This document shows positions 11,210-32,468 of a stretch of 64,000 bases of DNA, one piece after another. Under the pieces are notes generated by a model that saw nothing but the letters and a program-made list of their open reading frames with translations, searched no databases and was not told the origin of the DNA. The position numbers were made by a program, and so were the translations under genes. How positions within the stretch are numbered: position 1 is the stretch's first letter; each line of letters begins with the position of its first letter. The DNA is from Fistulifera solaris (taxonomy: Eukaryota), in assembly GCA_030295235.1 (NCBI GenBank), contig AP026140.1, forward strand, positions 496,001-560,000, read 5' to 3'.

Positions 11210-12862
11210 TTAGGCAGCCGCTGCGCTAGGGGCGCTGGACAGAGTCGAACTGACAGGCGCGGTGCTTCCTCCGGATGCACTCGAAGGAGATGTCGTGACC
11301 GTCGGTGCCGCCGTTCCAGCTGGAGCCGGAACCGTGCTACCCGATACAGGTGATGAAGTCACCGTCGGTGCCGCCGTTCCTGCGGGGGCCGGGACGGCGC
11401 TTACCGTCGCACTTGTAGGCACCGCCGTGACGGTTGGTGCAGTCGTTCCTGCTGGGGCTGGAACATCACTTCCTCCCGATGCACTTGAAGGCGAAGTTGT
11501 GACAGTGGGTGCCACAGTTCCTGCGGGGGCTGGAACGGTGCTTCCCATTGCACCTGAAGGAGACGTCGTGACAGTCGGCGCCACGGTTCCAGTTGGAGCT
11601 GGAACGGTACTGCCCGTAGCACCCGAGGGAGATGTCGTAACTGTCGGTGCGACCGTCCCTGTGGGAGCTGGAACGGTGCTGACCGTGGCACTCGAAGGAG
11701 ATGTCGTTACGGTTGGCGCAACCGTGACAGTCGGTGCCACCGTACCTGCTGGAGCCGGCACGTCGCTTACCGTCTCGCTTGAAGGCACCGCCGTGACGGT
11801 TGGTGCCTCTGTTCCGGTTGGGGCTGGTACAGTACTGCCTCCCACCACAGTTGGAGCAGGGCTGACGCTGGGTGAGGCGGTTACCGTCGGCGACGCAGAC
11901 ACTGTGGGTGCGCCCGTTGCATTAGTTCCAATGATGGTCGGTGCAAGTGTGCTCGAAATCGGCGAAGTCGTCACGGTGGGTGCGATTGTTCCTGCTCCAG
12001 TCGGAACCAACGATTCCGTAGGCGTGGTGATGGCCGGCTCTGTAGTGGGTGTAGCGGTACCACTTCTCGTCGGGCGAGCGCTTATACTGGGGGCAGGACT
12101 CACACTGGGCGAGGGACTTCCCGACGTGGTGTCACCGGCGGAAGGACCAATGGTAGGCGAATCCGTGGGGCTGCCTGGCAATACAGATGGCCCGGGAGAA
12201 CTCACGTCGGTTGTCGGGGAGGTCGGTGAAGCGGTTACGGAAGGCACAGTCGTGACAGGGGCAGCTGAGACTCGTCCCGACGTAGGCGCCCCAGTTTGGC
12301 CAACGAATGTGGGAGCGCTGGAAATTGTCGGTGCAAGCGAAGGAGTGGACGCTGGCGGCTCGCGAGGTGCGAAAACACTCAAAAATATAGACGAGTAGCT
12401 ACCTTCTGGCTTCGGCGTCCAATTGTCGGGGAACACCGAGAGAAAGTCTTTTACTGTGTCCGTGACCAATTTGGCGCTGACAGGCGAACGTGTGGGCGTA
12501 GTTTGCTGAGCTTGCGACTCGATCTCCGAATCAGGCTCGGGGTCGCGGTTGCCGCTGAAAATATTTGTAAAGATATTCAAATAAGTTCGAGTGCTCGTTT
12601 CTGGTACATCGGTATTCTTTTTAGTAGATACTGATGACTCTTCTTCACCAAAAACGGACCGAATATTGAGTACATTGAAGAGCCTACGCTCGTAAGACTC
12701 TGATTGCTGGGGTTGCGACGAGATAAGTGTCTTTCGACTTGATCGTACGCGGCCTTTCACGGCATCTTCCCGTTCGGGTCCTGTTTCTTGGCCGATGGCA
12801 ATTTGCGCCGCGACTCCAAACGTCGCGTGTAACGCGATGACCAGAATCGGCAGATTTCGCAT
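11210..12862 (-). CDS. Secreted mucin-like Pro/Thr/Ser/Ala repeat protein
   Basis: Signal peptide MRNLPILVIALHATFGVAA, RRL motif, and about 9 imperfect VPAP(A/T)GT.APTVT.SPS repeats. Confidence 0.85.
   Translation of the reverse strand: MRNLPILVIALHATFGVAAQIAIGQETGPEREDAVKGRVRSSRKTLISSQPQQSESYERRLFNVLNIRSVFGEEESSVSTKKNTDVPETSTRTYLNIFTNIFSGNRDPEPDSEIESQAQQTTPTRSPVSAKLVTDTVKDFLSVFPDNWTPKPEGSYSSIFLSVFAPREPPASTPSLAPTISSAPTFVGQTGAPTSGRVSAAPVTTVPSVTASPTSPTTDVSSPGPSVLPGSPTDSPTIGPSAGDTTSGSPSPSVSPAPSISARPTRSGTATPTTEPAITTPTESLVPTGAGTIAPTVTTSPISSTLAPTIIGTNATGAPTVSASPTVTASPSVSPAPTVVGGSTVPAPTGTEAPTVTAVPSSETVSDVPAPAGTVAPTVTVAPTVTTSPSSATVSTVPAPTGTVAPTVTTSPSGATGSTVPAPTGTVAPTVTTSPSGAMGSTVPAPAGTVAPTVTTSPSSASGGSDVPAPAGTTAPTVTAVPTSATVSAVPAPAGTAAPTVTSSPVSGSTVPAPAGTAAPTVTTSPSSASGGSTAPVSSTLSSAPSAAAA
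11262..11850. repeat. Coding minisatellite, ~60-85 bp imperfect tandem units
   Basis: Recurrent GT(C/T)GGTGC...GTTCC(A/T)G(C/T)...GG(A/G)GC(C/T)GG units with synonymous variation. Confidence 0.8.
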
Positions 12863-13900
12863 GGAATATCGCTTTTGATTAGAATAGCAGATATGAGGTC
12901 TATGTTTATTGATTAAGAGTAATGAATCTGCCCATCACAAAGGGACGAATGAACAACCGCTTCGTTTGGTGAACGAGATAAAAGAAAAAACTTCAGAAGG
13001 CAAGGTTATCTTGAGTATTTAGGAGATTTTATGGTGTTTTCGAGATCTTTCAAGATGAACGGAAAGATTTTTACGTAAATACTACTAATTTTTGCTGATG
13101 GTGATACTCCGATGTACTAATTGCAATCAACCTTTAAAACTTTTTGATACACCAGTGTACGCGTCACGGCTGCTGACAAATTTCAAAAACAATAAGTCCA
13201 TAACTTGATACCTGATGGGCTGATGGGGAAATCAATCACGAACTTGGTTAGTCCCGAGCTTGTGCTGGTCGGTCGTCGGTCGCTGTTCTCTCGCTGGTCG
13301 TGGCCTCGGGAATCCGGAGATGATGAGTCATGAGTCTAGTGTCATTGTGGCACAATTCACCGGTACTGTACCTGGAACAGTAGTCTGACTCAGAGCTCAG
13401 AGCTCGGAGCTTCCGAAACTTACGGACGTTCCAGTTTTAGCACAGAAATAAAGTTCTACAATCTACTATAAAACAATAAAACACGTAGTAGGGATATTTA
13501 CTACTCTTAAAAAAAAAATAAAATAAAAATAAAACAGTGTTATTTCCTTGCTATAAAAGACACAAAGTCCAGTCACTTTTATTACTCAAATGTCTCCAGC
13601 CAATAAGTACAAATTACAAATTACTGGATCTGTAACCTATAAGGCCGTTTCTAACACGTAATAGTGACTGTGTGGACGGTGGACGCGGAATAATTTTAGG
13701 CCTCAGCAAAAGACAAAAGACCGTCATCGAACGACGATGGACGAATGGCTTCTGCCTTCTAAAGTTTAGAGTGTTTAGAAGATAGCCGTCGCAGCCTTCT
13801 GCATCCTGCATTCCGGCACGCGGTGGAAAAAATTACTCCGTGCTTCGCATGAAGCTGAGATTCGCCTGGTGAGCTTTCATTACTTTGCAACTAACCGACG

Positions 13901-15538
13901 ATGTCTGCATTGGTAGCTTTACCGGATGATGCGCTGCAGCAAATTGCGGCGTTTTTGCCACCCAAGGCTATTGCTCATTTTCTTTGCTGCAGCCGAAGCT
14001 TGCACAGCAAGTTCGATACTTCTGATCTTTTCTGGACTCGTCTTCTCCGTGAGCAATTTCCCCAAACAAACCTCGAAAAAATATGTTCTGTGACGAAAGA
14101 TCCGAAAGAGGCATTTTTGGTACAAGTGGGTGCACGTGATCTGAACGCGGTCAAATGGATTCGCCTGGAGCAAGGAGATACGTGGCCGTCTGATCGAGAA
14201 GGACACCTGTGTGCGAGAATGGGAAACTCCATTGTTATGACAGGTGGTTTTACAGACGATGATGATGTCTATGTCTTTGACTTATCGGCAGGTAATACGA
14301 GCAAGACCTTTGCTCGAATTAGACCTACCGTGGAGGCGCATCAAGTACAAGAATCAGCCGATCCTACTAGCAGCCCTCAACTAGCCGCTTCTCAATTAGC
14401 AATTCTCCGGCCTCTGTTTGTCTATGGGGCGTCTTTCACGGCTCTCGACTCAAATAGAGCAGTACGTTTCGGGGGTTTCTGTTCCGGTGGCTATTCCTCA
14501 GAGACCAGTCAGGTTGTGTTGCTCACGTTAAATGGTACAACCGCGTCGTGGCGAGTCGTTTCCTGTAAGCGGCAATCGGGTGGTGACCCGATGAGCCAAG
14601 ACTGGTCGCTTCGGTTGAGTCGAGCGTATCATACTGCGACTTTGCTATTTGATCGGTATTTGTTAATTCTTGGAGGTATGCAGAGAGGTGAATCCACTTG
14701 GGAACCGGCCATTCTCGACACACTGACATGGACCTGGCTAGATCAAGATATTTCTCCATCTGCAGCAACAGCTGTGCATCCATCGAATCGACATGGACAT
14801 TCGGTAGTTGTCGACCCGGTCCGTAATAGATTAGTGCTGTTCGGAGGTGGCAATGGGTCGGATTTGCTACGATCCGGTAGAGATAACACCGAAGTTTGGG
14901 AATGCCCACTGCCTTCGCTGCATGATGACCTCGGTATTTTTCTCAGCACAATGTGGAATTGCCTTCAAGAAGATCAGATAGCGACCATCCTTGGTCATGC
15001 AAATGGGGGAAATGGTGAGATGATGACTGGAGATGACGGTAAAGACTCCCGGCGTCTTACCGCTGTAGAAGCACTCTGTCTTGGTAGATGTCATTCCGCT
15101 TTTCGTGTGAGTCACGACAAGGTGATATTAACATTTGGATCAGGTCGACCATCTACCAATGGGATTCTGGGGTATGACTTGGCTGAGAATGTCTTTTGGA
15201 GGCCCAAGATATTGGGGAAACCTCCACTACCTCGGTTTACTTTCGCGTCGGTTTTTTTGGAAGAATACGGGTACGTCTTCATTCATGGTGGCTTCTCTAG
15301 TCAGTACGGATCTAGTATCGCGGATGGTTGCTTTCTTGACCTTGCTGGAAGTATTGATCGCGCTTGTTCACTAATGGGAGAAAACACTGATGCTCTACCA
15401 CATCCGACTCCAACGAATGCAACGGCGCTGCAGGAGCTAGAGTTTCTCTATTCTGATTCTCGGATCGGTGATCGGTCAAGATCACTGCTTCAATACCTTC
15501 AGGCGCTGGCTCAGGGGGGAATTTGTGGGCAGCGATAA
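13901..15538 (+). CDS. F-box / Kelch-repeat protein
   Basis: N-terminal F-box (LVALPDDALQQIAAFL) and Kelch motifs (PSDREGH...TGG, RAYHTA...LGG, RHGHS...FGG, PRFTF...HGG). The true stop may be 15572 if the G6 run near 15514 has an extra G. Confidence 0.85.
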   Translation: MSALVALPDDALQQIAAFLPPKAIAHFLCCSRSLHSKFDTSDLFWTRLLREQFPQTNLEKICSVTKDPKEAFLVQVGARDLNAVKWIRLEQGDTWPSDREGHLCARMGNSIVMTGGFTDDDDVYVFDLSAGNTSKTFARIRPTVEAHQVQESADPTSSPQLAASQLAILRPLFVYGASFTALDSNRAVRFGGFCSGGYSSETSQVVLLTLNGTTASWRVVSCKRQSGGDPMSQDWSLRLSRAYHTATLLFDRYLLILGGMQRGESTWEPAILDTLTWTWLDQDISPSAATAVHPSNRHGHSVVVDPVRNRLVLFGGGNGSDLLRSGRDNTEVWECPLPSLHDDLGIFLSTMWNCLQEDQIATILGHANGGNGEMMTGDDGKDSRRLTAVEALCLGRCHSAFRVSHDKVILTFGSGRPSTNGILGYDLAENVFWRPKILGKPPLPRFTFASVFLEEYGYVFIHGGFSSQYGSSIADGCFLDLAGSIDRACSLMGENTDALPHPTPTNATALQELEFLYSDSRIGDRSRSLLQYLQALAQGGICGQR

Positions 15539-15673
15539 TGAGAGTGAAGGCAGTGGTGACGTACCCCCATGATAAGTGACAAGCTATTGATTAGTCTAGA
15601 CAAATTTTTTAAAAAAATTACTTTTAGATAATTGTTAATTTTGAATGATAGCCTCCTGTTGCTGTAGCCACAT

Positions 15674-18600
15674 TTACGAGTTCGTGTTACTGTAGTCTTT
15701 CAAAAAGAATCTGCGGCTCTTAAGATCGTAAGGCCGTCTTGCTGGTGGGTCTGAACCACTTACGAAACCAACGAGATTGAGGGAATTGAACTTCCAAATG
15801 CTACCTTGTCGTCCAGAGGAACCACTGTCATCCCAAAGCTTCTGCATCTGCGTGCTCTCCTTGCACCACTCGCGTGGAACGCATCGCATAACGTCAACTT
15901 TCGGCTGTTGATCGGTCTTCGATCCGATAAAGCCTAAAGCGACAAACTCTTCTCCTGGTGGAACTGGTTCCCAAGCATAGAAATGGTTGTTACCGTGTGT
16001 CAGACTCCAGGCCAGGCGGAACCTGGCAGGATGGGGCAGATACTTGTTCAAAACATGCGGTAACCAGCTACTACCCCCAACCCAGCCGCTCGAAGTATCC
16101 GTAATCTCGAGACAGAGGCGTTCATTGCCGTCACGAAGCGGATTATCATACCCGTATCCAGCGAAGTGTCCTAGGCAAATTGCGGCTTTGTTTTGCTTGA
16201 AGCCGCCAGCTTGAATGGAAGGATTCCAAATTGAAATCTTGTCTCTGCTCATGCTTCCCTGGCTATTCCAAATCAAGTTGAATTTCGTAATCTTCTTCAC
16301 TTTTACTTTGATAGAGGCCAAAACAGGTTCTGGGATCACAACTTTCAGCGTGCCTGAATCCTCGGAAGGCATCGGTGGAAGAGGAACCCCTGCGTTGAAT
16401 GACATAGATGGGGCCATATCACTCTCGTCTTCGAAGCCAACGGCGGCCTTGAACTCCTCCAGATTGATGAATCCATCGCTGTCTTTGTCAAGTTCTTTCA
16501 TAAATCCGGCGACAAGCGCCGGGTCAAGTTTAAGACCCAGCCAATCCATACCTTTTCTCAAGTCTTCTTGGTTCAACAGACCATCCCGGTCTCGATCAAT
16601 TGCTGCAAACGCATCCCGCGGATACATTCCCCTCGATTTCAGCAAAGCAGTTATTCGCCCTGCAGCAATCTTGTAGTTAAGTAGATGGTGCTCATCGGCT
16701 GTGATGAAGACCTTCGACAGCGATGTGGTTTCTGGGGCAATTTCCTTGCGCCTTCTATTACTTCGTACTTCGCAGAAAAAGTTGTACCGTCTTTCTAAAT
16801 CGTTGTTCTGCAATGACCTGAGCAGAAGCGTCAATTCTCTTGGCCGGTAGTTGACTTGGCTATCAATAAAGCGGTAACAAGCCTGTGCCGTAGAATCCTG
16901 GAAGCTCTGTGCTGCTTCGTAACCATGTGTGGAATCTAGCGTCGTGCGTTCAGTTCGAAGAGATACGGCGGTGTCTCTTCCTGGGATAAGGGGAAGCATA
17001 GACTGCTGGTGAATAGCAGCTCTCATACACTCAGCTTCAAAAAGAGATAGCGCAACATAGAAGCGGCCTGCTTGCACTCTGTAGAACATCCGCTGTGTTA
17101 GGTAATGCTTGAGCTCGTCAAAAGTGATCGTGCGAGATTGCAAATCAGGTAGGTTTCCAAAAATTTGTCTCCGTCGTCACCGTCGACATCAACGTCGACA
17201 GCTCGAAGCACCTCCCGCAGCTCAGCTACTGAGATTGTCGCAGACGTTTCTAATTTGTCACCAGCTGACCCTAAAAAGGCTGTTTTCAACATCTTCTCCT
17301 GTTCGCGAGTGAGCGGTTTACCGACTGACGCAATTTCTTGCAGTGCACTTTTGGATGGGTAAAAATCCATTGTAACAATGACATTCTTGAGCCTTCGATG
17401 AGTTTTCGTACTCCACTGTTTGTTGTAGTAGTTGCGTGAAATCAGCATGTAGTCAGGGAACTCAAGGGAGACGCCTTTAGAAAATATGTAGTTTTTGACG
17501 GAAAATTCGGAAGCGGGGTAGAAGTACTTTTGAAAAGGCTTGACTTCATTACCGTCTGTCTTGGAGTTCACGTCTGCATTGTGAGCTAGCGACTCGATTT
17601 GCCAAGGAGTAGGCATTTCGTCATCTCTGGAGTATTTCTTCTTTTCGCCGATTCATTTACCACTTCTTCTTCCTCTTCTTCCTCTTCCTCTTCTTCTTCC
17701 TCCTCCTCTTCTTCTTCCTGTTCACATAGAGCATACAACAATGAGTTACATCTAGAGAAATTGATTCTTGGCACGTAATAATACAAACCTGTTCTTTCAA
17801 GACTTCTTCTTCCGCGACTTGTTCTTTCTGAAGCTCGGCGTCCTGATCTTCCTCTGCTGCTTCTGCCACAGAGGGCTCACCAAATTTTTGCTTCGCAAGC
17901 CCTTCCGAATTGACAAGAACCATCAAAATCTTATCAATGACAGCTTTGTCATAGTCAGACTTGATGAACTCCTTTCTTCGTAGAACAGTGTTACGCAGTT
18001 TTTCCGACAGGGGGGTTGGTATAGGAATACTGTTAGGAACGAGGAAGTCAAGTCTTTCGGTGAGAACATCCAAACACTTCTGGATACTGTCGATTCCAAT
18101 CAGTTTGGTTGCTGTCGATGATCCAACTGTTCCAGCTTGGACTACCGCTAAGATCGCGTCGAAATCTTCAGAAGAAAAGTTCGTTGTTTGAAGATCAAGT
18201 TCGAGATCTCCGTCAATGTCGTTTCCGGATTTGTTTGGTCCCCTATTGGCCAGAGCGGCAAACTCTTTGACGCGATGTGCGAATGCAAGCTGTGTCAATT
18301 CGCGGTAGCTAGTTGTCAACAAGCTATAACAACGCTTTCTCGAGACGTTGTCGATACTCTGGTGGCATAACATGCGAAACTGCATGTTTTCGCTTTTCAT
18401 TCCATTAACAGTTAACCACGCGGCGACATTAACGAGAAGCTGTTTGTTGCTAGTCTGAGAGACTAGCGCGTTGCTAGTTGGCCCAGTCGGTAATGGAGAA
18501 GCAATACCAAAGGGGTCGGAGGTTGCATTTGGGTAAGAGTGGACTCCATGGTTTCCGTGGACAACATTACTGCTGAGACGACGATACTGGTCGTCCACTA

Positions 18601-21600
18601 ATCTCATTACCTCAGGAATAATGAAAAGTTCAATGGTCTGACCTTTGCCGATACCGCGCATACGGAAAGCACCTTGAGCATAATCGCGGAAAGTCATATC
18701 TTTTCCAAGAGTGAGAGCGGCTCGCGCATCGATCGCTTGGTGAATATCCATTCCCGTTGTGTGAATTTGGTCGTAAAATGAAAATCGGCGGTGGGGAGGG
18801 ATTCCAGATTGGTTTAGTCTGACCACATTCATGCCGTTTCTCATCAAAATCATTTTGCGATCTTTGTGGTCGAGGAAAACAACACCATCGAATTCTGTTG
18901 GAAGCCCATTATTAAGCAAAAACTTCGCGACGTCGAAATTGCTCATGCCAGTCACGAGTGCTCCGCAGTCAAGCAGAACATGGAATGGAGGCCGTGCGGT
19001 TGCGATGTCAGTTAACAACTTTGCGACAGACCAGTTAGCGTCGAGCAAGCGGCTGCTCACGATTGATTCAGATGTAAGATAATCAATTATCTGACCATCA
19101 ACACCCTCATCATACTCGCATTGACCAAGTTCTTCTGGAAGTAAATCACTCGGTGTCCCGCTAAAGCCAACACGTTTGCCAAACAACATGTCGCCGCCCA
19201 GGTCCTGTCCAGATGCACTTATCTTGTCGTGATGATGTTCCATCGTCAGCGGGAACACAAAGGTGTGCAAATAATACTGGAGAACGCTTGGGATATTTTG
19301 AAGAAGTTTGTAAGTGACACTCATGTGCTGGTCGTCTTTTACGTCAAGAAGATGCAAAGGCCAAATATCATCGGCGCCTCTAGCGCCAATCCGTCCAACT
19401 GGCGCCTTGAAAAAATCTGCCTCTGGATCATCTTTGTTGCCGCTTTCGCCTTCACCTTCCCTGGGGCCCCGCACTTTCCCACCAGCCTCCTCGACCCAGG
19501 CCTTGTACTTGAGGGCTGCCGGTCGCTTGTGAAAAGGACCAAATTCAGAATCAAGCTGTTCTCGAAGAACTCCGATTACGTTTTCGAAATCAGAAAAACG
19601 CAAGCCTTCGTAGCGGTATGCCAAAATCGTCAATCCAATGACAATATCAGGGTGGGAAAATTGGCTTGCTCTGCTGGGGATGTCCTTTCCAACAAAGGGA
19701 ACAGCAGCGAGACGTCGCGCTAAGGAAACACTGGATTCCGTTTCTAGGGTCAATTTTAGATCGAGCTTTGACAGCAGCCCATAACTTACGCGGTTGATCT
19801 TGCTTAGAACGTGAGGCAGAAAGTTCCTCAGCAAGTCGTGGCTTAAATTCAACATTTTCATGTAGTCATCGTCGAGAGCAACATGAACAGCAGATGCGGC
19901 TTGGCGATCCTTTAACGGTCCGTTAACCATGTATGATATCAGATGTCTATCCTCGACCGTCGGAAGACGCTTGTGTCTGAGATAGAGAAGCTGCCACCTC
20001 GCCATGAGAGGTTTCAGTTCTCTATGATAAAAGGCCTTGTTCAACAAAACGAGGTGCGGAGTGTGCTGAAGATGCTTTTCAACAATTCCTTTCCGAATAA
20101 CAGCGGCAATTTCTTGCAAAATAGTTATGGCCTCTCTGCTGTCCTTGAAATCGACTGACATCTTTCCAACTGACGCATAAAATACCCCATCAATAAGATG
20201 CCAGAACAGGTCCCAACGAATTCCGATGCCCAGCTTCCCGCGCGAGTAATCGATAGGATCTTTGTGACCGATTGGCCAATTTAGTTCCGATTTCAAGGGG
20301 TGCAAGATCAAGTCCACTTCGTCTAAAAGTAAACAGCCACTTTTGAAAAGCTTCAGAATCTCGGTGCAATAATAAACATCCTGGGGCTCAACGTCGAATT
20401 CCACAGTCTCGACTTGATCACGGAAACGTCTGGCAATCGCCGAAAGAGAAAACGCCCCGAAGATTCCATTGTTTCGGGCTGCCCTTCTAGCAGCGCCAAA
20501 CTTCTTCTCCTCCAAAATCTTCATCATTTCGACAAACTTCAGCATAAAGGATTTAATACTAGTAGGTGTAGCACAGATGACAGCTTTGCTGTCTCGTGCT
20601 TTGCATAGCTTGAGGTAAAGGTCCCTTGTAATTTTCGTCCCGCGGCTGAAGCTGAAAGTGAATATGGGCTTCCTCACAACCGCTGCAGAATTTTTCTCGC
20701 ATCACACCCCGTGAAAAGTCAAGGAGTGCATGCGGAACAACCTGGGTGACCAAAGATTTACCATCAGCCAGAATGAGAGCCAGAAGCGGAGTAACAACGG
20801 TGGTCTTTCCAGCTCCCATGATCATTTGGTTGCACATCGATCGGCCGCTTTTCATTGCACCGATGAGTTTGTTTACCAGCAGAACTTGACTTTTTCGTAG
20901 CATTAACGAGTAAGTGAATTCAAATACAAGGTATCTTGGATCAAACTCGATAAAATTGCCATCGGGTGTAGGAGTCATAAAATACCTCTCATTCGAAATA
21001 TCAGCGGCTACTTTAGAGGATTGCAACTTGATTTCCTGGCTCATTCGTGATTTGGCGTTAGCATCTTTAGTGCCATTTATGCTGGAGAGAAGTTTATACA
21101 GCTTCGACAAACTGAGGCAAAGCAGATGGTGAGACAAAAAACTTGATAGGTTGAAAATCGGACTGTAATTCATACCTTGAAAGTGCACGGTGCGTTTGGG
21201 ATATTCTGATTGAGGTTAGCATCGCGACAACTGTCAAACTGGTGACTGTTTTGTAAGCGACAGGCGACATGTGCGGATTAAGTGATCGGATGTCATATTC
21301 AGAGTTTGTCGATAAGATTGAAGCAACCAGCAGTTCAAACCAGGGCACTGGTTCACGTTCGCCAACTTGTCCCAGACGAAATCTCAAGAAGTTAATTTCA
21401 TTGTGCACGTTGTCTGGCGAGGGCGTGTCGCTTCTTTCATCACTGGCGGCGATGGCGAGAGCGCGCTTCATCAGATTCCATAACGATTTCCTATCAAAGT
21501 GCATCGCTTGATTCAAAGATTTGATAAGCTTATTCAGCTGTTCCAAGGCCTTAGCCAGCCCAGCTGGGTTAGTGTGAAATGCGTCCACTTCAGCGGGCGT

Positions 21601-24600
21601 GAAGCCAATGAGCATAGGTGTCATTTCTGAGTTTGCTTTTTGTGCATATTTGAAAACGTCTGTCTGAACTCGTTGCATTGTAGCCTGAGAACAGTGCGTT
21701 TGCGATGCCCTCTCAGAGGATACGTCAAACGAGAGAGTGGACGACACCGGAGGCATACCGACTTGCATTCTCGACAGATAACAAACAAATTTTTCCAGTT
21801 GAATTGGTGCCAGCGGTTTCGATGCAAATGCTTGGAGTTGCTTGAACGGAATATTAACCGCAGCGCAGTTCTGAACATCCAAGTAAAACTTTTCTTGCGA
21901 ATAGTCAGATATGCGCGGTACAACCCACAACCGGTGTGAAGAAAATGATTCAGGTCGACTTAATATCATAGCGGAACGAGGTAATGATTCCGGGTAGACA
22001 CTTGTGTTCTTTATCATAGCCCGAACACCTTCCTGGTTTAGAAAAGTGTGCAATTCCCCAATCAGCCTGGTGACTGAGTCCTTGCCGGCAAACATCCCTT
22101 TCAGTTTACTCATTCCACTATCAGGCTGAAACTTTGGAATCGATGGATGCGATGCTACCGGCGGATTTTCGGCAAGAATTCTTAGAATTGACATCTCAGC
22201 GGAAAGCGTTTTGTAATCCGACGGCGGGATGAGTCTAAAAAGCATTCGGCCCCAATTATGTGGTCTATCAGCGGGATGAAGCTTGAACTTCACAGTGTTC
22301 GTAAGCAGGTCATAAAGGAGAGGAAAGCCATATCTAGATGATGCCATTTCCACCCCAGACGATACGGCATTATTTATGAACTCAAGAGCCTTTAGCCCTC
22401 CGTATGCTACATCGTCCTGAAGTCAACAAAGAAGGTCAACATTGGCAAAACATTGCAGCAGAATACTCTGTTCCAACAGACTTACCTCCTCTGGTCTACT
22501 ATACGCTGCCCCAAATAGCTTCGCCGATACCATTGTCTTCTTCGGATTTTCGATGATTGTAAAGTCCGCACCAAAGTCAAAATTTTCTACCAGCGGTGGC
22601 TTTTCTTTGCCCAATTGTACGGTGAGCGTCTTGTCTTTAGGCAATGACGAGAGGCTGGAAACCGCTCCCACAAAAGCCTTCCGATTAAGAAGCGTAAGCG
22701 AAAGTCGATCCTTACTTTCGGGTGTACAAAGCTGAAGAAGAAGCAACTCCTCTTCGGTTGTCAATCTACACGCCGAAGATACATATCCGTGTTTCTTCAC
22801 ATATGCCTCCATTTCCTCCGAGATGCTCCATGGACACTTCATTGTCGATTCCGAACCCAATCCTACCGTCACAACCGACAACTTTAACCTACAAGCATGA
22901 GCATCTGGGTGAAAGTCATTGCCAAGAAATTCAAGCTGGTTAAAGATTTGTTGCTAAAATCCTTAAAGCGTGAGCTGCATTTAGCCGTAAAGATTCAAGC
23001 AAGCAATTGATTAGGGACTCACCTCTTCTGCGTTCAGCTCTTCACTAACACATGACTCGACCATTTTGAACACCTCCGCATACGAACCGGTGATAAAGTA
23101 CATAAGCATCAAATAAAGAGAGGACGCCAGAGAAGGGGTGACAAGGAAAGACTGCGAATTGTGAATTGGATAAAGGTAGGACCGTACTTCCCCAATGTTG
23201 TTGTTCCAGTCTTTGTTGCGCCTGTCAAGAATGACTTGCACAGAAAGATGAGAGCCGTCTACATGGAGGCGCCGCGGTAAAGCACAGCTTGGCATCAAAA
23301 CGAAAAGATCATTGTCCGAATTTTGAAGAACGATATAATGAGCAATCGTACCAAGCAAACGCTCCGAGATTTCACGTGCTTCGGTCGATGTGGCTATGAA
23401 CAGACCGTCATAATCATTGCTGTAAATACGCTGCTCTACTTGCCCGTCAACCACTTCTTCAGTCTTGGCTTTGAATGAGAGATTTACTCGAGGTAGCTCA
23501 ATCAAATCGATGGAACCAGGATCGTGAGGGGTCTTTAATTCTTCTTTACTCCAAACAAGGACATGAGCAAGATTATCGAGTCGCGAGAGAAGCATGCCGA
23601 CTCGTTTCAACAATGAAGAAGGAGGCGCGGTAAGGATATTCAGTAGCGTGTGAGATGCTCGATTATTATCGAGTTGCTGAATTGAATGATCATATCCGAG
23701 CACAGGAATACGCTGGATGAGAGCTTCTGCGGCTGAATTACAGTAGCCAGTCTCGTCAAATTCGGAGCCCTTGGAAAGGATAATGCGTAATCTAGTCGAC
23801 GGCGTGTTTTCATCTATTGGTGGCTTTTCTACGTCATCCTCACTTCTTGTAGGCTCTTTCTCGTAGCCGATTATGTTGTCGTCTTCGCTTTGCCAAAAGT
23901 GATACTTCGCGACAAGTGCCGAAGGAAGTAAACCCGCTAGAAACCTGGGAGGAACGTAAGTCTGCAACCCCAACTCAGAATTCAATGCTCGAGTTACAAG
24001 TAGAGATGGTCCGGGGTCGACTGTAGTCATCGGAACACCCGCGGATAGGGATAAAATCCCGCCTACTCGGTCAGGATATGGCTCTCCCTTTACTTCATGC
24101 AGACACATAGAGATATTGGATGAGTATTCAAGGACACGCATGTGCCTCCTTCCATGCTCAACAACATTGAAAACAGCCAAGACAGGAGGATGCTGCCAAA
24201 CAACAACTTCCTTCAAAGTGTGACTACCTGGCGCCCCGTCAGTTGCTTTGTTGTTTTTCATCCAACCACTCAATACAACGAATGCTTCATCGGCTTGATT
24301 TTTCGGGCTCATGTACAAAGTCGTTTCCGGTAGAATTAGCGCCAACTTGTCCTTGAGTATATCAGCTATCCACATTTCATCCCTGTGAAGGTTATTTGGA
24401 AATTTCCGGGAGAGACGAGGGTCCAAAAATCCCTTTATGTCGTAGTAGTTTCGGCTATCAGGGCCCCAGGACAAAACGTCGTATCTTCGTCCCACAAGTC
24501 GCCACCAGTACCGATTGGTCGTGTGGACAACCTCAGCACATGCAACGTCCGAAGCATCTTTCAGAGCTGTGCTCCTTGTGGCTCTGAAGTCACGGTTTTC

Positions 24601-27600
24601 AATGATATGGGGATCAAGAAGTGACATTTTATGATTTTGCAAAGTGAAGTCACTGAGTTGGACATTCACTTCGATACCTACAGCCTTCGTCGTGACGTAG
24701 AGCATCCATTCTTCGTATGTTTGACCTTCTTTTGGGATACGGTAACTACCATCTCGTAAATTTTTATCTTCGGTGTCTGGGACAAAGCGACCATAACAAG
24801 TTTGGTGCTGAATACTCTGCCAATGGCGATTCTCCTCAGTGCTTTCTTCTCGTGTACCGGTACCTGTTGCAATGCGCACAACCGCTTCCATAGCTCGGTC
24901 ACCTTCTTTAGGATGCTCTCGAATGAAGCGTAGAATGTTGTATCGATGGGACTGGATACAATCGAAAATTTCTGATTGAGCTATCTGAATTGAAGGAGGT
25001 GGCTGTGTTGGGTTCGCTGTATCTTGCAAATCATCATAGACTTTACTGCTGAAGCGATGATTGATGGTAAGATAAACTTGCGACGACATGATGATCGACA
25101 CGGCTCTGTAGTCGAGATCCTCATAATCATAATTCTTGAAGAGGTACAATAGATGAGCGTGAGTGAGACATCCGGTGGTTACGTCTTTAGACCGTGATGG
25201 ATCAATCCAATACTCGAGAGTCGGAATAGCCTGAGCATCAAGAACGCCACGCAACTTCTTCAAAGCATTCTCCACCTTGATGTTGTCCAAGGATTCCAAC
25301 CCACGAGGCCGCGGCTGGCCGGGGATGCACTTTTTCAGAGCATACTTCAAGTACCCCTCGAGTCGAACAGCCAGTCGAATCGCATACAAAATCAATGGTC
25401 CACTTGCGCTCTTCTTAGTGTAACGTCCCACATCCATATCTAGCGCTCGTTCTAATATTTTGATGACACAACTTATCAGAACGTCAGGCGACTTGGCTAT
25501 TTCATTGAACAAAGTACCATGAGGTGTCGCAAGAAGAGCCTCAAGACGATCGATATCAATGACAGGAACCTCATTGATGAAGTCAGCGAAGTCTGCTGGT
25601 TTCCATCGTCCAGGTTCGAACAGTGCTGCATCCACAATGAGCTGCAGCGACTTAGTCTTCAAGGCCGACAATCTTGACGGATCTCCGTTCGCAAAAAAAT
25701 CTAAAATCAAAGGAATGCGTATGTACGGTACAGTTAAGAATTGCACGAACCGTTCAGAGTCAGACGGTGTTAGGACGTTGCCAAAAGTGGGAAGCTCTTT
25801 CGTTTCAAGATGTAACACATCATCCTCCGTAACCACTGAAACGGGCTTTGACCTGGACGAGTAGGATAAGATGGTGAGAACATTGTTAACAGCCCAATGA
25901 GCCAAATGCGACGCTCGACGCGTGCTTACCGCTTGGCCAAAAACTTCTCGCCGCAAGAATTAACAACTGTCGTGGCATCGGCGGATGATAATCGCGATCG
26001 TTCGATCTTCGACTTTGCTGAGAAAAGGGCGAGAAATCCTTTGAAGGCCGAAGATTTTTTCGTAGGCTCTTGTTGCGCAATTCGCTCAACGAACTGCTGG
26101 TCGTGACCTCGAAAAGCAGTGACATGGTAGGAGAACAACGGGTTTTCTTTCTCTTTCTCATTTCTCTTTACTTGCCAATGAAGAGTAGCATCAGATGGAA
26201 GCCATGTGTGTGTTTCCGGAACGTCCGGAGTCTGATCTTTGCCTGATACAGCGTGCTTGAAATGGAAAACTATATCCCGGAAATACTCGAACTCGGGCAG
26301 GACCTCGATCAGCGACCCATTTGAACCCCCAATCAGTCGAGCAGCATGGTTTGTCATTTCTTCGTCAGTGCGTGGATGAGGGCGCTGCATCGCCAACTGA
26401 ATAGACAGCTGATCTATCAAAGCCACATCACCCTTCATGGGGGAAAGGCTTTTGTCAAAATTAAAAATAGTATTACGGAAGGTACCATCGCGTCTCATAC
26501 TCAAGTTCCTCAGATAATCTAAACACTGGTATCGAAGCGAACAAACATTCGGATCGTAAATGGGAAGATTTGATCCCAGTGTATCGTACGCTCCAGCTTC
26601 AATTGCAAAGGGCTCGGTAGGACCCTCACATAGACCCGAATAATGCAAGGCAAAAGTACTGGGATCGTCCACAGCCACTGCCCGGCAGATGGCGTCGGCG
26701 ACACAAGCGGCTGCAGCAAAAGCGGTGGAACGGATGGCGATCAATCCTCTGGATTGCTGGACGCATGCGGTGGCCGCCGAATATATTCTGCAAAGTCTTC
26801 GGATGAGAAAAAGCAAATTTAACTGAGTTTCTCGGCGCATTTCACTTTTTCGCCAGAAGCAAAACTTAGGATCCAAGTTGGGCATGGGCAACACCGTGGT
26901 CAGCGCATGCTGAGCAGCCGACGCTGCGAAGGCGGGAGCATTTTTATCAGGCTTCGTTGCTGAAGAAGCAAACTACATGCGTCTGCAACACGTTGCAAGT
27001 AGGAACCAGCAGTTGCATAATCTTTGGCTACAGGGGGAAGGTGCTCATCCGTCAATACTGCTGGAATCAAGATAGGATCAGGTCGAGGGTCTCCCATCAA
27101 ACGCTTGACAACTTCCTCATAATTGTCCCTTCGTAAACGACCAAAGAGCGGAAATGCAGCAGAGCCAGCTCCAGTGCGCATCGAGACAATTTTGCCCTTA
27201 GAGAAGTCGTCGGTCATGGCAGCCGCAGTCAACCCGTGACTGTACTGATCCATTGGTTTTGCAGACGAAAAGTTAATCTTTTTCAACAGCTTGTCTAAAA
27301 GATCCCACGTATCAGACAGCGACGCACCAAGACTTCCGTCTCCAACAGTATTGGGATGAATTGTCGATGCAAAGTTTGCGATGTTTCTTCCTGCCAGCTT
27401 CAAGATTCGGGTATCTTCTGGATCCATGGAAGAGGGAGGAGCATGCTCAATTTCACCATAGGCAAGTTGAACGGCAGCGTTCATCAAAAGCAGGGTAGCA
27501 TATTTGGAGCTGCTAGTACCGGTTGCGGGAGAGCTCGTCAACGCTAGTCTCGCCAACGGATGGTACGACTGCGCCGATATTTCGTCCGGAACTTCCAAGT

Positions 27601-29402
27601 ATTCCGAGGGACCCTGATCCAAGTTGGAGAGTAGAGGACGCGAGTTCAAGGCCGGCAAAAGCTTGGTGTACAAGAAAGCCGCGTTGTTCTTATGACTCGG
27701 ATAAACTTGCATGCGAAACAATAGAGTCCAGAAAGTAGAATCCATAATACGAACACTCGGGATGTCCCAAATGGTCATGGCAAGCTGTTTCAATTCACGA
27801 CCAGTCTCGGGATCAAAGCTAGCTGGATGGTATTGCAGACCATCACGACCCGTGTTGCAAACGGTGAAACTCCAGCGGTTGTTTCCGCAGTTTCGAATGA
27901 TGTAAAGACACAAGTACGTGTAATCGGGCTGCTGCCAACCACCCGGTAACACGAGCTGTTGGTTGTCTTGGACCTGCTCCAAAAACGGCACAAAGACGTT
28001 GATGAAATTCATAAAAAGCCCGTCCAAAGCAGCCCCGGAAGCACCCGCCGAGTGCGGAAGAAGACTGATCAGCTTAATACACGCTTCACAAGCCATGTGG
28101 TTGTTGTGTAAGAATGCGATCGGATTCTTCCCCGCCCGCTTCTGAGCGGTCATGGCACACACATGACTGACAAAACTCAAAGCCTTGGAAAGTTGCTGAT
28201 AATTCGCGGATCGGTCCGCCAATTTTTCTTTCGGTACCGGCTTTTGCTGAATGTACGTGTTCAGATTCATCAAGGCCCAGAACGGTGGAACACGAAAGAT
28301 CGGAGCGAAGGTGCGTTCCGGCAACTTGTTGCTTCCCACCAAGTATTCGTACGGATTGAACGAAGCCATCGTCATATCGACTTCTCCGCTCGTCGTTGAC
28401 GACGACAAATGAAAACCACTCGTCCCCAAACCCGCCGTCGTGTCCGACACACGCGCCTTGCGCGATTCTTCTCGTTCTTTGCGCATTTGTTCCTTTTGAC
28501 GAGCTTCTTCTTGTTCGCGCAAGCGTCGTGCCTTGGCTTCAGCGTCCGGTGCGATCGCCAAAGACTGTCCGGTGCCCGCAAAGCTACTGACACTCGACAC
28601 GGCCGTCGCCGCGGGAGTCCGGGGGAGCGGATACTTGGTCGTATCTTCCGTCGGTGCTTTCGCCGGCGTCGTCATGCTCGGTGTTTTGGCGACAACGGGG
28701 GTACCCGTCGACTTGATCGACGACGTCAAAGGCGAACTGGCTCGACTCCCCGCCGGTGTCGTCGTTTTGCTACTACTCGGCGATGCAATGCCCAGGCGTG
28801 CCAAAGCCGCCTCCGCCGAAGATGGAGCCGCCGGTGAGTTTGACTTGGGGGTATGGCTGACGGGGGTGGCGACCGAGTTCTGCGAACCACTGAACGTACT
28901 AGAAGGAGTCGTCATCGCGGTAGGGGTAGACACTTGTGGTGGACCGGGAAAGGACATTCCGGACGTGGTGGTGGGTGCCGGCATACTCGACAAACCGAGG
29001 TTCGTCGAGCCAGACAAGTTGTTCGAAGGAGCATTCAATCCTTCCAAACCAGCAAAAGGGTCTTCTGGTTCGTAGCGAGGTTGCGGCATGGTAAAGGATC
29101 CTGTAGGAGCAAAGGATACCGGCGGCTGCTGCTGAGCTCGTTGCGGATGTACTTGCGGCACTGCGGAGGGGAACGAAGCTTGCTGCATACGCTGCTGCAT
29201 GTTGGGAGGCACAAAAGCCGGTGTCACCGGAGTCACGTAGGTCGGAGGAAACCATCCTTCCTTGTTGTTGTAGGATCCCCACCACCAGGCCCCCCTCCTG
29301 ATTAGGCTTGGCAAGAATGGTAGCACCCGGCGGGAAGGAGAGTTGCGACTGGCGCGGATCACCTTGAAACAGGTGTTTGGAGACGTAGTGCGCGGGCTGC
29401 AT
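15674..29402 (-). CDS. Giant (~4,400 aa) multi-exon protein: SH3, Pro-rich linker, unknown region, DUF3638/DUF3645 P-loop (SF2-like) region, poly-Glu, 2 EF-hands, Vps62-like C-terminus
   Basis: Abutting same-strand ORFs joined by GT-AG introns (e.g. 17718-17788) or single-base breaks. Motifs: SH3 (LSFPPG...WWWGSYNNKEGWFPPTYV), QMIMGAGKT, LLLDEVD, AVPFVGKDIPSRASQFSHPDI..GLTILAYRYEGL, EF loops DRDRDGLLNQED and DKDSDGFINLEE, W.PVPP...FVALG....CVP. Confidence 0.82.
17664..17717 (-). repeat. GAR trinucleotide tract encoding 18 consecutive Glu inside the giant gene
   Basis: Pure (GAA/GAG)n directly after the AG acceptor at 17718-17719. Confidence 0.88.
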
Positions 29403-30054
29403 TTTGGATCTTTGACGGACCCGATCTTTGTTGCTCAAGTTTTAAAGGCAAAATGCACGGCAATTTACAGTGCTTCAAGGAATAGAGAAAGTTTTTCAAT
29501 AACCGTTCACTTTCTTCGAATAGGAGGATGAGGAAAGCACCTTTGACCCAGGAAGCAAGAATGAAGATCAACGTTAACGGACCGCGAAAGGGGCATCATC
29601 GGTGGGAGGATCGTTTGTCGTTTGTCGTCCTCCTTGTTCACTCCACGCTCACAGTGAGCCAATGCCAGTTGACCGTCACTATATGTGTTAAAAGTGGGGG
29701 ACGTACGTCCTTCGTCTCGCCACGCAATTTAAAACATCAACGGCATTAAGGCGATCGATCGGCGACGAAACTCTAAGCAGAAAACCTGCTTACAAAATAA
29801 AAGTACTATCACCAGTGCCGCTCCAACGGTACTATACGCTTCTATGTAGACGACCTTTTGCAGAGCAATCATTCATCCCTCCATCACCCAAACCGTATTC
29901 CGAAAAAACGTGCTTCACGATCCAAGACAACGGACCGATTTCAACGCCAACAACAACAAACCAACAACCGCAACAAACCTGCCGCCAAACATGGCTTCGG
30001 AATAAGTGCATTATCTTCTTCTGTGACGTTTCCGGCTCACAATTGGTCTTCATC

Positions 30055-32468
30055 ATGCAAACAACACTCCAACCCATCGAAGATGAAGTATTAGTGCCGT
30101 TACAGCCGGATGAAGAAACGGAAGATGGAAGGGTCCGCAACCGGGAAGCGATTGCGAAAATACGGGATATTTGGATTTACAGTAAAGTGCGGGCCCGACA
30201 AGAGGAATTTACGCAATATCGTAAGGTGCGTGTGCGTATTATAGGAACGCGAACAATGAAAAATGGCTACCTCGTAGTTGTGTGATATCTTCTTTCCTAC
30301 AATCCTTTACACTCTTTATACTCAATCGCTTTTCACTACACACAGGCACTTGTTTTTACCGGCACCTGGAATGTCAATGCCAAAGGCAAAGAAGAACCCC
30401 TCGATGAATGGTTGTGCGCCGATTGGGCCACGCAGGGATTGCCGGACTTGGTCGCCGTCGGTTTTCAAGAAATTGTCGATCTCAATGCCGTCAATGTCGC
30501 CGTCGATAACAAAACCCAACAACGTTCACAAGTTTGGACGGAACGTTTGAATGCCACGCTGAATCAACACGCGAATCAACCGGAGCGTCGGTATGTACTT
30601 GTGGCACAAAAAAGTATGGTCGGATTGTTGATTTGTGTCTTTGTGCGATTTCCGCATTACCCCAAAGTCCAGTACGTTCAAACGAGTCAAGTGGGAGTCG
30701 GTGTCATGGGTATGATGGGCAACAAGGGAGGTGTCAGTGTCCGGTTGCAATTTTACGATTCGTCCTTGTGCTTTGTGTGCAGTCATTTGGCCGCCCATCG
30801 TGAAAATGTCACCGGTCGGAATGCCGATTTTGCCAATGTCTTTTCCAAAACGGTCTTCGATGTCGGCGAAGCCGCCATTCGCGAAGTCATTCGGTCCGGA
30901 TCGTTGTCGCACTTTGCCAGTCAATCCACGACAGTCGGCTTGGCCGATCATGATCATACATTCTGGTTGGGTGATCTCAATTATCGAATTGATGAATCCA
31001 TGCCCACGGAACAAATATTAAAATTGTCGGAAACGTGTCAAAGTTCGCGCCATGTACCACCCGAGTTGCGTCAATTGGATCAATTGAATATGGAACGGTC
31101 CGCCGGTCGGGTCTTTGCCGGATTTCAAGAAGGGGTCTTGCACTTTGCTCCGACGTACAAGTATCAACCGGGCACCGATATGTACGAACAACGTCCCGAA
31201 AAGAAATTACGAGCGCCAGCCTGGTGTGATCGCATTTTGTGGATGTCGCAACAAGCCGAACACGTCCAGCAGTTGACCTATTCCAGAAGTGAACGACCCA
31301 ATTGTTCCGATCATAAACCCGTGTACAGTTCCCTGCAATTGACCGTCAAAGATGTTATTCAAGAAAAACGGGAAGCCATTTATGCCGAATTGAATGCCTT
31401 ATTGAGTCGGTATGAGAATCCGCAAACACTTCCGGTCATTGAATTGGATCAAGTGGCGTTGGACTTTGGACCCATTCGTTACCAGGAACGCAAAACGTTG
31501 TCAATTCGTATCACAAACATTGGGAGTGTCGTGGCCATTTTTCGGTTCGTTCCCAAAACTGATGAGGTACGTCAGTCATTCTTGCTTTGTAGCCGGTGGA
31601 TGCCGCATTTCTGACCTCTCGGTGACAGGTCGGTATCTGCAAACGGTGGCTTTCGGTCAAACCCGCATTTGGTATGTTGGTGCCCGGTGATCCACCTTTG
31701 ACGGTGAATTTCACCATTACGATTGACAGCTACACCGCCCAATTACTCAATTCGGGACGCGAAGTTCTGGATGATATCGTGATTTTGCGTTTGGAAGATG
31801 GTCGTGATTATTATATCACGATCAAAGCATCGTTTGCGCGATCGTGTTTTGGCATGGCAGCCGATGAGCTCGTCATGTATTCCGATCCGATCCGTAGTAT
31901 TCCCATTGATCCCCTGGAACGGGCCAAAAGATTGACCCGACCAACACGAGTACCGCGTTATGTATTCCCAAAGAACTTTGGCGCTGCATTGATGCCATTT
32001 ACCAAAAAGGTTTGGCGGAACCTCATCTCTTTGTCGAATCGGGCATCCCCGAAGAAACGGCCGCTATTCGCGAATGTCTCGACACCGGAACGGCCTTTGG
32101 GCGTTATTCCATCCACTCCTATGCCGACACGTTGGTATCATTCCTTTCCAGTCTTTTCTTCTCCGGTCGTACCGACCAAATTATTTCCGACGGTCGAAAT
32201 TGATTCGCAAACGATCCAATCGAGTGCCCGACGACTGATTGAAGATCTTCCTCCGATTCATTACAATATCTTTGTGTACGTGATTTCCTTTTTCCGTCAC
32301 GTGTTGGCGTTTCGGGATCGCAACTTGTTGACGGCCGCCAAGGTGGCGCGGGTGTGCGTGAACAGTTTGGCGCCCGGTCGGGATTTGGATAATACCGCGG
32401 CGTCCTTACAAAAACGCACGGGCATGCAGTTGATTGTCTTGCATCTGTTGGAGACGAGTAGTATTTGA
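30055..32468 (+). CDS. OCRL: OCRL/INPP5B-type inositol polyphosphate 5-phosphatase with ASH and RhoGAP-like domains
   Basis: GTWNVN, GFQEIV, GNKGGV, CSHLAAH, FWLGDLNYRI, PTYKY, PAWCDRILW, SDHKPV, then LDFG..RY, DIVILRLEDGRDYYI, SCFG and a RhoGAP-like tail. Introns about 30226-30345 and 31567-31628. Confidence 0.92.

Follow-up and report, generated by a model that had tools for sequence, protein, structure and literature searches.

SecA is a well-studied motor of superfamily 2 (SF2) that moves protein, not nucleic acid. According to the accessible parts of PMC9926265 and PMC5603524, a strand leaves its first RecA domain (RecA1) after motif II, a second strand returns before motif III, and a long helix follows; the same parts of PMC5603524 place the scaffold domain at residues 611-670 and 755-835. 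For helicases, the available text of PMC3378879 names Ia, Ib, IV and V as the nucleic-acid-binding motifs. SecA-like domains have been reported from bacterial effectors and toxins, and the portions of PMC3482391 and PMC8195603 open to us describe them without DUF3638 or DUF3645. DUF3638 itself is given no mechanism in the accessible sections of PMC5423893, PMC12615304, PMC6237848 and bioRxiv 10.64898/2026.10.14.759018, and those of PMC12615304 term it undefined. Here, we analysed a window of 64,000 nucleotides from Fistulifera solaris (contig AP026140.1 of assembly GCA_030295235.1, positions 496,001 to 560,000 of the forward strand; coordinates below count from the first letter of this window). 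On its minus strand lies a gene (15674..29402) for a protein of about 4,450 amino acids that carries both DUF3638 and DUF3645. Judged from predicted structures, the best explanation of these two domains is that each is a fragment of the same intact SF2 ATPase motor, laid out like SecA. We put the probability that it is a SecA-like polypeptide motor, though not a member of the SecA family, at about 50%.

Pfam searches placed DUF3638 (PF12340) over the Walker A region with an E-value of 1.9e-15 (57.3 bits, cut-off 31) and DUF3645 (PF12359) between motifs II and III with an E-value of 2.2e-13 (49.7 bits, cut-off 25). The two lie in this order and above their curated cut-offs, which makes the protein a member of the DUF3638/DUF3645 giant proteins. 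The sequence-only reading had listed five SecA-type motifs; all five were found in the order and, within a few bases, at the places it gave, and their exact minus-strand positions are as follows. Motif I (Walker A), NQMIMGAGKT, lies at 20802..20831 and motif II (Walker B), LLLDEVDLIL, at 20303..20332. Motif III, GFSGT, is at 19154..19168, motifs V/Va, FYDQIHTTGMDI, are at 18743..18778 (HTTGMDI at 18763-18743), and motif VI, QGAFRMRGIG, is at 18647..18676. Beyond these five, we found a Q motif (LRKSQ, 20886..20900), motif Ia (VVPHAL, 20724..20741, without the Arg of the DEAD-box PTREL), motif Ic ('ATPT', within 20581-20546) and motif IV (LLDCGAL, 18956..18976).

Conservation was counted among 120 listed homologues of the 257 found, with the rows that have a residue at the site as the denominator. 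The results showed that the Q of the Q motif (112/112), the Walker A Lys (115/115), D and E of DEVD (119/119), S-G-T of motif III (119/119), and the Q (110/110) and both Arg residues (109/109) of motif VI are all kept. The motifs, which would count for little if they varied among homologues, are thus near-invariant in their catalytic residues. A larger set comprised 177 protist-type rows and a distant metagenome group of 118 loci, 62 of them long enough to align, which we take to be fungal-type. This group was picked by its motif Va, so that the identity of that motif with SecA is circular there; the homology is independent, as 110 of the 118 loci matched the family hidden Markov model at E<1e-5. 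At least 85% conservation in both the protist-type and the fungal-type rows was found at 63 positions, among them the Walker A Gly-Lys (Lys in 177/177 protist-type rows), D-E-x-D, GFSGT, the motif IV Asp (177/177 and 62/62), the motif Va Gly and Asp, and the motif VI Gln. No Cys, such as would be needed to hold an iron–sulfur (Fe-S) cluster, was present among the 63 common positions or the near-invariant columns. The catalytic residues of SF2 ATPases in motifs Q, I, II, III, Va and VI are therefore conserved. Together with the model described below, we regard an SF2 fold with intact catalytic residues as nearly certain, and ATP hydrolysis by the motor is predicted from these residues.

The SecA-like appearance of the motif letters held up in part. 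The motifs are present and conserved, but their order is generic to all SF2 enzymes, and motifs Q, Ia and Ic look closer to those of DEAD-box proteins than to those of SecA. Motif VI has R-x-R spacing in 162 matched rows of the 177, whereas R-x-x-R was found in 30/30 SecA rows and 14/14 DEAD-box rows; the family departs from the SecA-type Q-x-x-G-R-x-x-R by a shift of the second Arg by one residue.

An AlphaFold model was built for residues 428-1465 of the intact homologue P0001, which is 82% identical over the motor, from 74 sequences and no templates. The model reached a predicted local distance difference test (pLDDT) score of 87 and a predicted template modelling (pTM) score of 0.88, and contained tandem RecA domains, a two-strand stem bearing the insert, and a long helix after RecA2. 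We compared it with 48,161 chains, and 192 of them scored Z>=8, the top 50 all being SF2-type, so that the intact two-RecA motor proposed from the letters is borne out by the predicted fold. A comparison with SecA structures had been suggested as the check, and SecA came first in three fold searches. In Foldseek, ranks 1-7 were SecA or SecA2 (best E 8.4e-6), followed by MDA5 (2.7e-4) and DinG (5.5e-4). In the search with another method, SecA 2fsf had a Z of 18.2 (452 aligned, root-mean-square deviation (rmsd) 5.6) and SecA2 4uaq 17.7 (446, 4.9), compared with DinG at 13.5 (338, rmsd 4.4), Hel308 at 13.1 (390) and the RecA1 of DDX20 at 13.0 over 188 residues.

The lead of SecA consists of about 110 further residues, reaching model residue 1011 and E. 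coli SecA 816-817 in the scaffold domain, while DinG alignments end near model residue 860 after about 340 residues and exclude the scaffold region. The corresponding C-terminal helical region (17950..18445, minus strand) begins with a conserved helix of 46 residues (about 18445-18308; model residues 850-895), continues with less conserved helices, and aligns with the SecA scaffold domain. A SecA-type scaffold long helix after NBD2 is thus present in the model and conserved in the family. The support for a link to SecA is the predicted fold, mainly these C-terminal scaffold helices, which lie outside the coordinates of the sequence-only reading, and not the motif letters. On this evidence, SecA is probably the closest known lineage, and a predicted shape closest to that of SecA suggests a motor that would pull on proteins, not on DNA or RNA.

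The insert between motifs II and III was said to occupy the place of the SecA PPXD, and the model agrees, since it leaves and re-enters RecA1 through two strands between these motifs. The mainly helical insert (19208..20290, minus strand) has 361 amino acids, about 2.5 times the SecA segment (142 amino acids). Its outgoing stem strand after motif II (20255..20284; model 240-249, insert model 3-12) is placed like the first connecting strand of SecA, and the returning strand before motif III is at 19214..19240 (model 585-593, insert model 351-359). The insert of F. solaris is predicted to fold alone (pLDDT 89). Its most conserved part is the DUF3645 motif VPFVGKD..S...HPD (19628..19720), a candidate clamp loop, in which R, A, P, P, H, P and D are common to protist and fungal-type members.

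When the isolated insert was searched, residues 13-226 matched the MBP-PPXD chimera 5k94 over 123 aligned residues (range 229-363, rank 6 of 48,161); this range fits E. coli PPXD numbering, although the numbering of the entry is unconfirmed and part of the match may be MBP. Insert residue 226 is the end of the helix after the DUF3645 motif, and DUF3645 would therefore fall near the SecA clamp loops. The state of SecA also mattered to the alignment of the whole model. SecY-engaged SecA aligned over 565 (6itc), 567 (3din) and 538 (5eul) residues, and free SecA over 430-453 (six B. subtilis structures) or 438 (T. maritima 3jux); 1m6n and 4ys0 aligned over 469 and 485 residues with rmsd >12. The gain of about 120 residues with engaged SecA is about one PPXD, and these alignment ranges suggest that the insert of the model sits as in the closed clamp of SecA. 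On the model we lean towards equivalence of the insert and the PPXD, and we advance as a hypothesis that DUF3645 is the equivalent of the SecA clamp loops, which the profiles do not back.

A number of results weigh against a SecA-type motor, and the first group concerns the structures. The full motor model is that of the homologue P0001 and not of the F. solaris sequence itself. The isolated SecA motor 3bxz scored Z 14.3 (335 aligned), a tie with DinG at 13.5, so the RecA core of the model, taken alone, does not favour SecA. Of the engaged structures, 6itc and 3din had lower Z scores (14.8 and 14.2) despite their longer alignments. The aligned range reaches the two-helix finger of SecA, which has a conserved Tyr, and the matching helices are hardly conserved in the family. 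For the isolated insert, Foldseek gave 0 matches at E<=0.001, a second look had a best Z of 4.2, and the 5k94 match, at Z 4.8, is at noise level and tied with unrelated helical bundles. The second group comes from sequence profiles. No SecA Pfam match was found at E<=0.1 in the gene or at E<=1 in six homologues. The hhalign score of insert versus PPXD was 11.4, equalled or beaten by 57 of 60 shuffles, and the match of DUF3645 to the SecA C loop, PP loop and following helix seen by eye was not recovered by hhalign (0.2%). The whole motor matched SecA with a profile-profile probability of 2.3-2.4%, and RecA1 alone matched the DEAD-box profile at 76% (E 2.2e-5) and SecA at 11.5%. SecA also keeps the motif IV and V hydroxyls, so their loss, described below, sets the family apart from SecA too.

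The profile test was limited by shallow profiles, and the comparison with the SecA alignment was significant in no cut; that alignment had 30 rows, mostly from one bacterial phylum plus one plastid copy (effective number of sequences about 3), with one locus from an unpublished genome omitted. Other searches from sequence gave little outside the family. A phmmer search of the PDB with P0121 returned 0 sequences at E<=10, a PDB search with the profile of A4 gave Mot1 as the single match (E 1.7, out of register), and the ESM Atlas gave the motor no match at >=0.9 beyond the family. Because of the profile probabilities for the whole motor and RecA1, and of the R-x-R spacing of motif VI, the motor protein is not a SecA family member. 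Genuine SecA genes sit elsewhere in the F. solaris genome, and the DUF3638 locus was not among the matches of a PF07517 genome search. The PF07517/SecA matches were on contigs C60 (twice), C11 and C12, and a further SecA match at C61:93283-97002 contained many in-frame stops, indicating a broken copy or assembly errors.

The same profile results bear on another explanation, that the protein is an SF2 nucleic-acid translocase or sensor of DinG/XPD, RIG-I or DEAD type, in which the insert has the role of an Arch domain. It is in keeping with the preference of the RecA1 profile for DEAD-box proteins (76%, and 53% in a second comparison), with the positions of DinG, Hel308, ALC1 and MDA5 close behind SecA in the fold searches, and with ESM Atlas feature leads for the motor to the ResIII, DEAD and pPIWI_RE_Z clusters, whose scores of 0.77-0.80 fall short of the reliable range. 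XPD and DinG also bear an insert in RecA1, the Arch in XPD, as stated in the accessible text of PMC3378879. Among the top 50 matches of the isolated insert there was no XPD/DinG Arch domain, which at a best Z of only 5.2 does not count against an Arch fold. DinG aligned over its 340 or so residues without the scaffold region.

For the residues that contact the nucleic-acid backbone in helicases, the register was taken from motif patterns and not from superposition. The results showed that the motif Ia Arg is kept in only 2 of 112 matched rows, that the motif IV Thr is replaced by Ala in 161 of 173 matched rows, and that Asp stands in 163 of 168 matched rows at the motif V site where DEAD-box proteins and SecA have Thr. 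An invariant Asp lies at or beside these sites. In control DEAD-box rows the Ia Arg and the IV and V Thr residues were present in 13-14 of 14, a pattern that the family does not share; the motif Ic Thr, retained in 90 of 138 protist rows, fits binding of nucleic acid. Because most of the backbone-contact residues are replaced, a canonical nucleic-acid track is disfavoured on sequence grounds, and we regard a nucleic-acid translocase or sensor as rather unlikely.

The remainder of the protein also bears on the substrate. From the N to the C terminus, it has an SH3 domain, a low-complexity linker, a protease-like head, about 2,000 amino acids without assignment, the SF2 motor, an acidic tract, EF-hands, and a Vps62-like domain. 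The SH3 domain (29230..29402, minus strand) is split by a one-base break near 29290, where the second copy of the gene lacks the extra base, and its piece matched Pfam SH3_2 with an E-value of 4.7e-4 (2.8e-5 on the homologue P0009). The EF-hand pair (16442..16618; Pfam E 3.8e-13) and the Vps62-like domain (15791..16312; Pfam E 7.3e-10) are on the same strand. A hydropathy scan of the protein found no window of 19 residues above the threshold set. In the protease-like head (27302..28114, minus strand), the Asn is kept, and the His and the Q-x-x-G-(S/T)-C are absent, so that F. solaris has only the Asn of the His/Asn/Cys set of an active cysteine protease or ubiquitinyl hydrolase. Of 42 homologues, 8 combine the His with Q..C and none has the Cys without the His; the diatom rows have lost both. 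In the ESM Atlas, the head led to YopJ-like proteins at 0.79, which is a lead only, and its other matches were unnamed clusters with low recognition. One unnamed cluster, linked to the head at 0.95, holds 486 short proteins of 239 amino acids, 54% of them bacterial among those recorded; these may represent the head as an independent protein.

Among the domains found in homologues are UBA, thioredoxin, EF-hand and RanBP zinc finger. Many accessory domains are swapped around the motor among P0027-P0120, and their accessions include what we take to be WW, FYVE, RING, ankyrin, WWE and MIB/HERC2 domains. Because of the replaced contact residues, the head pattern and the accessory domains of homologues, taken together, we give a polypeptide substrate roughly even odds. 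If the motor acts on protein, ATP binding would close the two RecA domains, the scaffold helix would pass on their movement, and the insert, together with the conserved DUF3645 loop in it, would clamp an extended polypeptide against the stem. Whether cytosolic or at a membrane surface, such a motor would pull on, unfold or extract proteins, and a SecY partner is not implied. Where the head of a relative has the whole His/Asn/Cys set, the motor might feed or position substrates for that head, while the F. solaris head, lacking His and Cys, would probably only bind. The SH3 domain, EF-hands and Vps62-like domain may supply targeting and Ca2+ control.

The same architecture could belong to a switch or scaffold gated by ATP, such as a sensor in the immunity or trafficking of protists or fungi, which would hydrolyse ATP to change its shape and expose the head, without processive pulling. 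The non-canonical spacing of motif VI, the high variability of the accessory domains and the lack of His or Cys in 34 of the 42 heads are consistent with it. In the parts of the sources that are accessible, DUF3638 is described as an expanded microsporidian family (PMC5423893) and in a polymorphic candidate effector of Plasmodiophora (bioRxiv 10.64898/2026.10.14.759018). However, the Q-to-VI set, stem, insert loop and scaffold helix are conserved together, which we infer is more than a simple switch needs, and a PF12340 search of the F. solaris genome found two gene copies only. We consider a switch quite unlikely. Returning to the polypeptide motor, its boldest form would make DUF3638/DUF3645 proteins a previously undescribed lineage, sister to SecA and found in eukaryotes and giant viruses. 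The motor would have two RecA domains and work independently of a channel, DUF3645 would serve as the clamp loop in an enlarged PPXD, and fusion to a cysteine-protease head would be ancestral, giving one chain that both unfolds and cuts. We hold this form only tentatively, as somewhat doubtful. If true, it would provide the first example, outside Sec export, of an SF2 motor that remodels proteins in this manner, in a role otherwise given to AAA+ rings.

The structure of the gene was obtained from tblastn tiling of 29402-15677 by intact homologues, from read-through translation and from Pfam. The read-through translation, with X at the breaks, has 4,456 amino acids, an approximate length; it is out by one base at the last intron, beyond the motor. 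In the assembly, Walker A lies in another reading frame than the other four motifs listed by the sequence-only reading, which does not mention this. An extra base at 20688, just past motif Ia, throws the remaining motor out of frame. This base is missing at full depth in the contigs of 4/4 runs from 2 studies, and P0001 is continuous through the site; therefore the frame break is an assembly error. The absence of the base from the contigs of all four runs also led us to reject a programmed frameshift or a tiny intron at this site. The second gene copy (contig C20, 474000-492900) is 96% identical and also carries the 20688 break, and the two genomic copies differ by more single-base indels, mostly in homopolymers. 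Gene calls across 15500-29600 of the window and across C20 474000-492900 will come out fragmented, owing to several single-base indels, of which that at 20688 is common to both.

Five introns with GT..AG ends (25853-25929, 22954-23022, 22417-22485, 21112-21175 and about 17718-17788, minus strand; span 17718..25929) were identified, the boundary of the last being inferred from printed contig ends. Their joints were seen in contigs of runs X3 and/or X4 and were absent from X1 and X2. Because X3 and X4 skip the introns and X1 and X2 do not, the joints indicate spliced transcripts; none of the runs is recorded as RNA, and the joints are what this conclusion is drawn from. With several frameshifts in both assembled copies and a break near 17161 that was filled in 3/4 runs and not in X1 (rows shown), the gene might be a decaying pseudogene from which the motor is not made intact. 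The break in the motor is missing from 4/4 runs, however, most of the gene is covered by spliced contigs, and the motor is 73-82% identical to homologues, so that we find decay highly improbable.

The family is large, and 7,726 representatives (50% identity) matched it at E<=0.001. Among the 120 listed homologues, named matches included diatoms, haptophytes, oomycetes and kinetoplastids, and the closest named relatives are diatom proteins. Giant-virus models in BFVD matched the family at E 1e-32 to 7e-16; tight-pattern scans of viral contigs returned no relatives, though BFVD holds viral members. A pattern scan of bacterial genome contigs gave one locus among 41 pattern matches, with patterns too tight to test bacterial membership. 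This locus (G001:C101, 1-9947) is a protist-like open frame of 3,315 amino acids that fills a whole contig of an Anaerolineaceae-labelled bin, and it is probably eukaryotic contamination of the bin. The F. solaris gene is thus an ordinary member of a catalogued, unstudied family, and the interest lies in the family itself. We found no published link between DUF3638/DUF3645 and SecA in a literature search that left most subscription journals and supplements outside.

In the window, the gene has a divergent neighbour at 30286-32468 (plus strand), which by eye we take to be an OCRL/INPP5B-type inositol 5-phosphatase with a RhoGAP-like tail, and a convergent neighbour at 13895-15538 (plus strand), presumably an F-box and kelch-repeat protein, also by eye. 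Further along, 11210-12934 (minus strand) encodes a protein whose start is signal-like and which has tandem repeats rich in Thr, Pro and Ala, of the PAPAGTVAPTVTTSPS type.

Compared with known systems, the nearest are members of the same family. Ditylum brightwellii P0021 and Pseudictyota dubia P0020 are 67-68% identical, and P0021 also has EF-hands and Vps62; their UniRef label, 'ubiquitinyl hydrolase 1', is automatic. Against these two and the Klosneuvirinae-type viral proteins in BFVD, the F. solaris copy is set apart by its SH3 start and a head lacking His and Cys. The motor reading is specific and testable, and would replace both DUF names as well as the 'ubiquitinyl hydrolase' label, which is unsupported. 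With a family of thousands of clusters in protists, fungal-type sequences and giant viruses that has its stem, its scaffold helix and an insert at its position, SecA would gain a sister lineage, and with it would come a way to examine how the substrate switch within SF2 arose. DEAD-box proteins are the top sequence-profile match for motifs I to Ic, and the RecA1 of DDX20 is similar in fold; the family differs from them in having DEVD and SGT instead of DEAD and SAT, a large insert and C-terminal helices, and in lacking the Arg and Thr residues of the control rows. DinG and XPD (6fwr, 9ii8, 8e2w) have an SF2 core that ties with the isolated SecA motor in Z score, and a helical insert in RecA1, but no match to the scaffold helix; the family has no conserved Fe-S cysteines, and its backbone-contact residues are replaced. 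SecA and SecA2 (2fsf, 1tf5, 5eul, 6itc, 3din, 4uaq) share with the predicted motor the tandem RecA domains, DEVD, G-x-x-G-T and G-x-D, an insert carried by two stem strands between motifs II and III and the long helix after RecA2, and they are the best fold match; fungal-type members show GEGK in 14 of 27 rows, at the variable position. They differ in that structural identity is about 12% with no significant profile match, and the family has an insert of 361 amino acids versus 142, R-x-R in motif VI and Asp in motifs IV and V. The F. solaris motor also sits inside a protein of about 4,450 amino acids.

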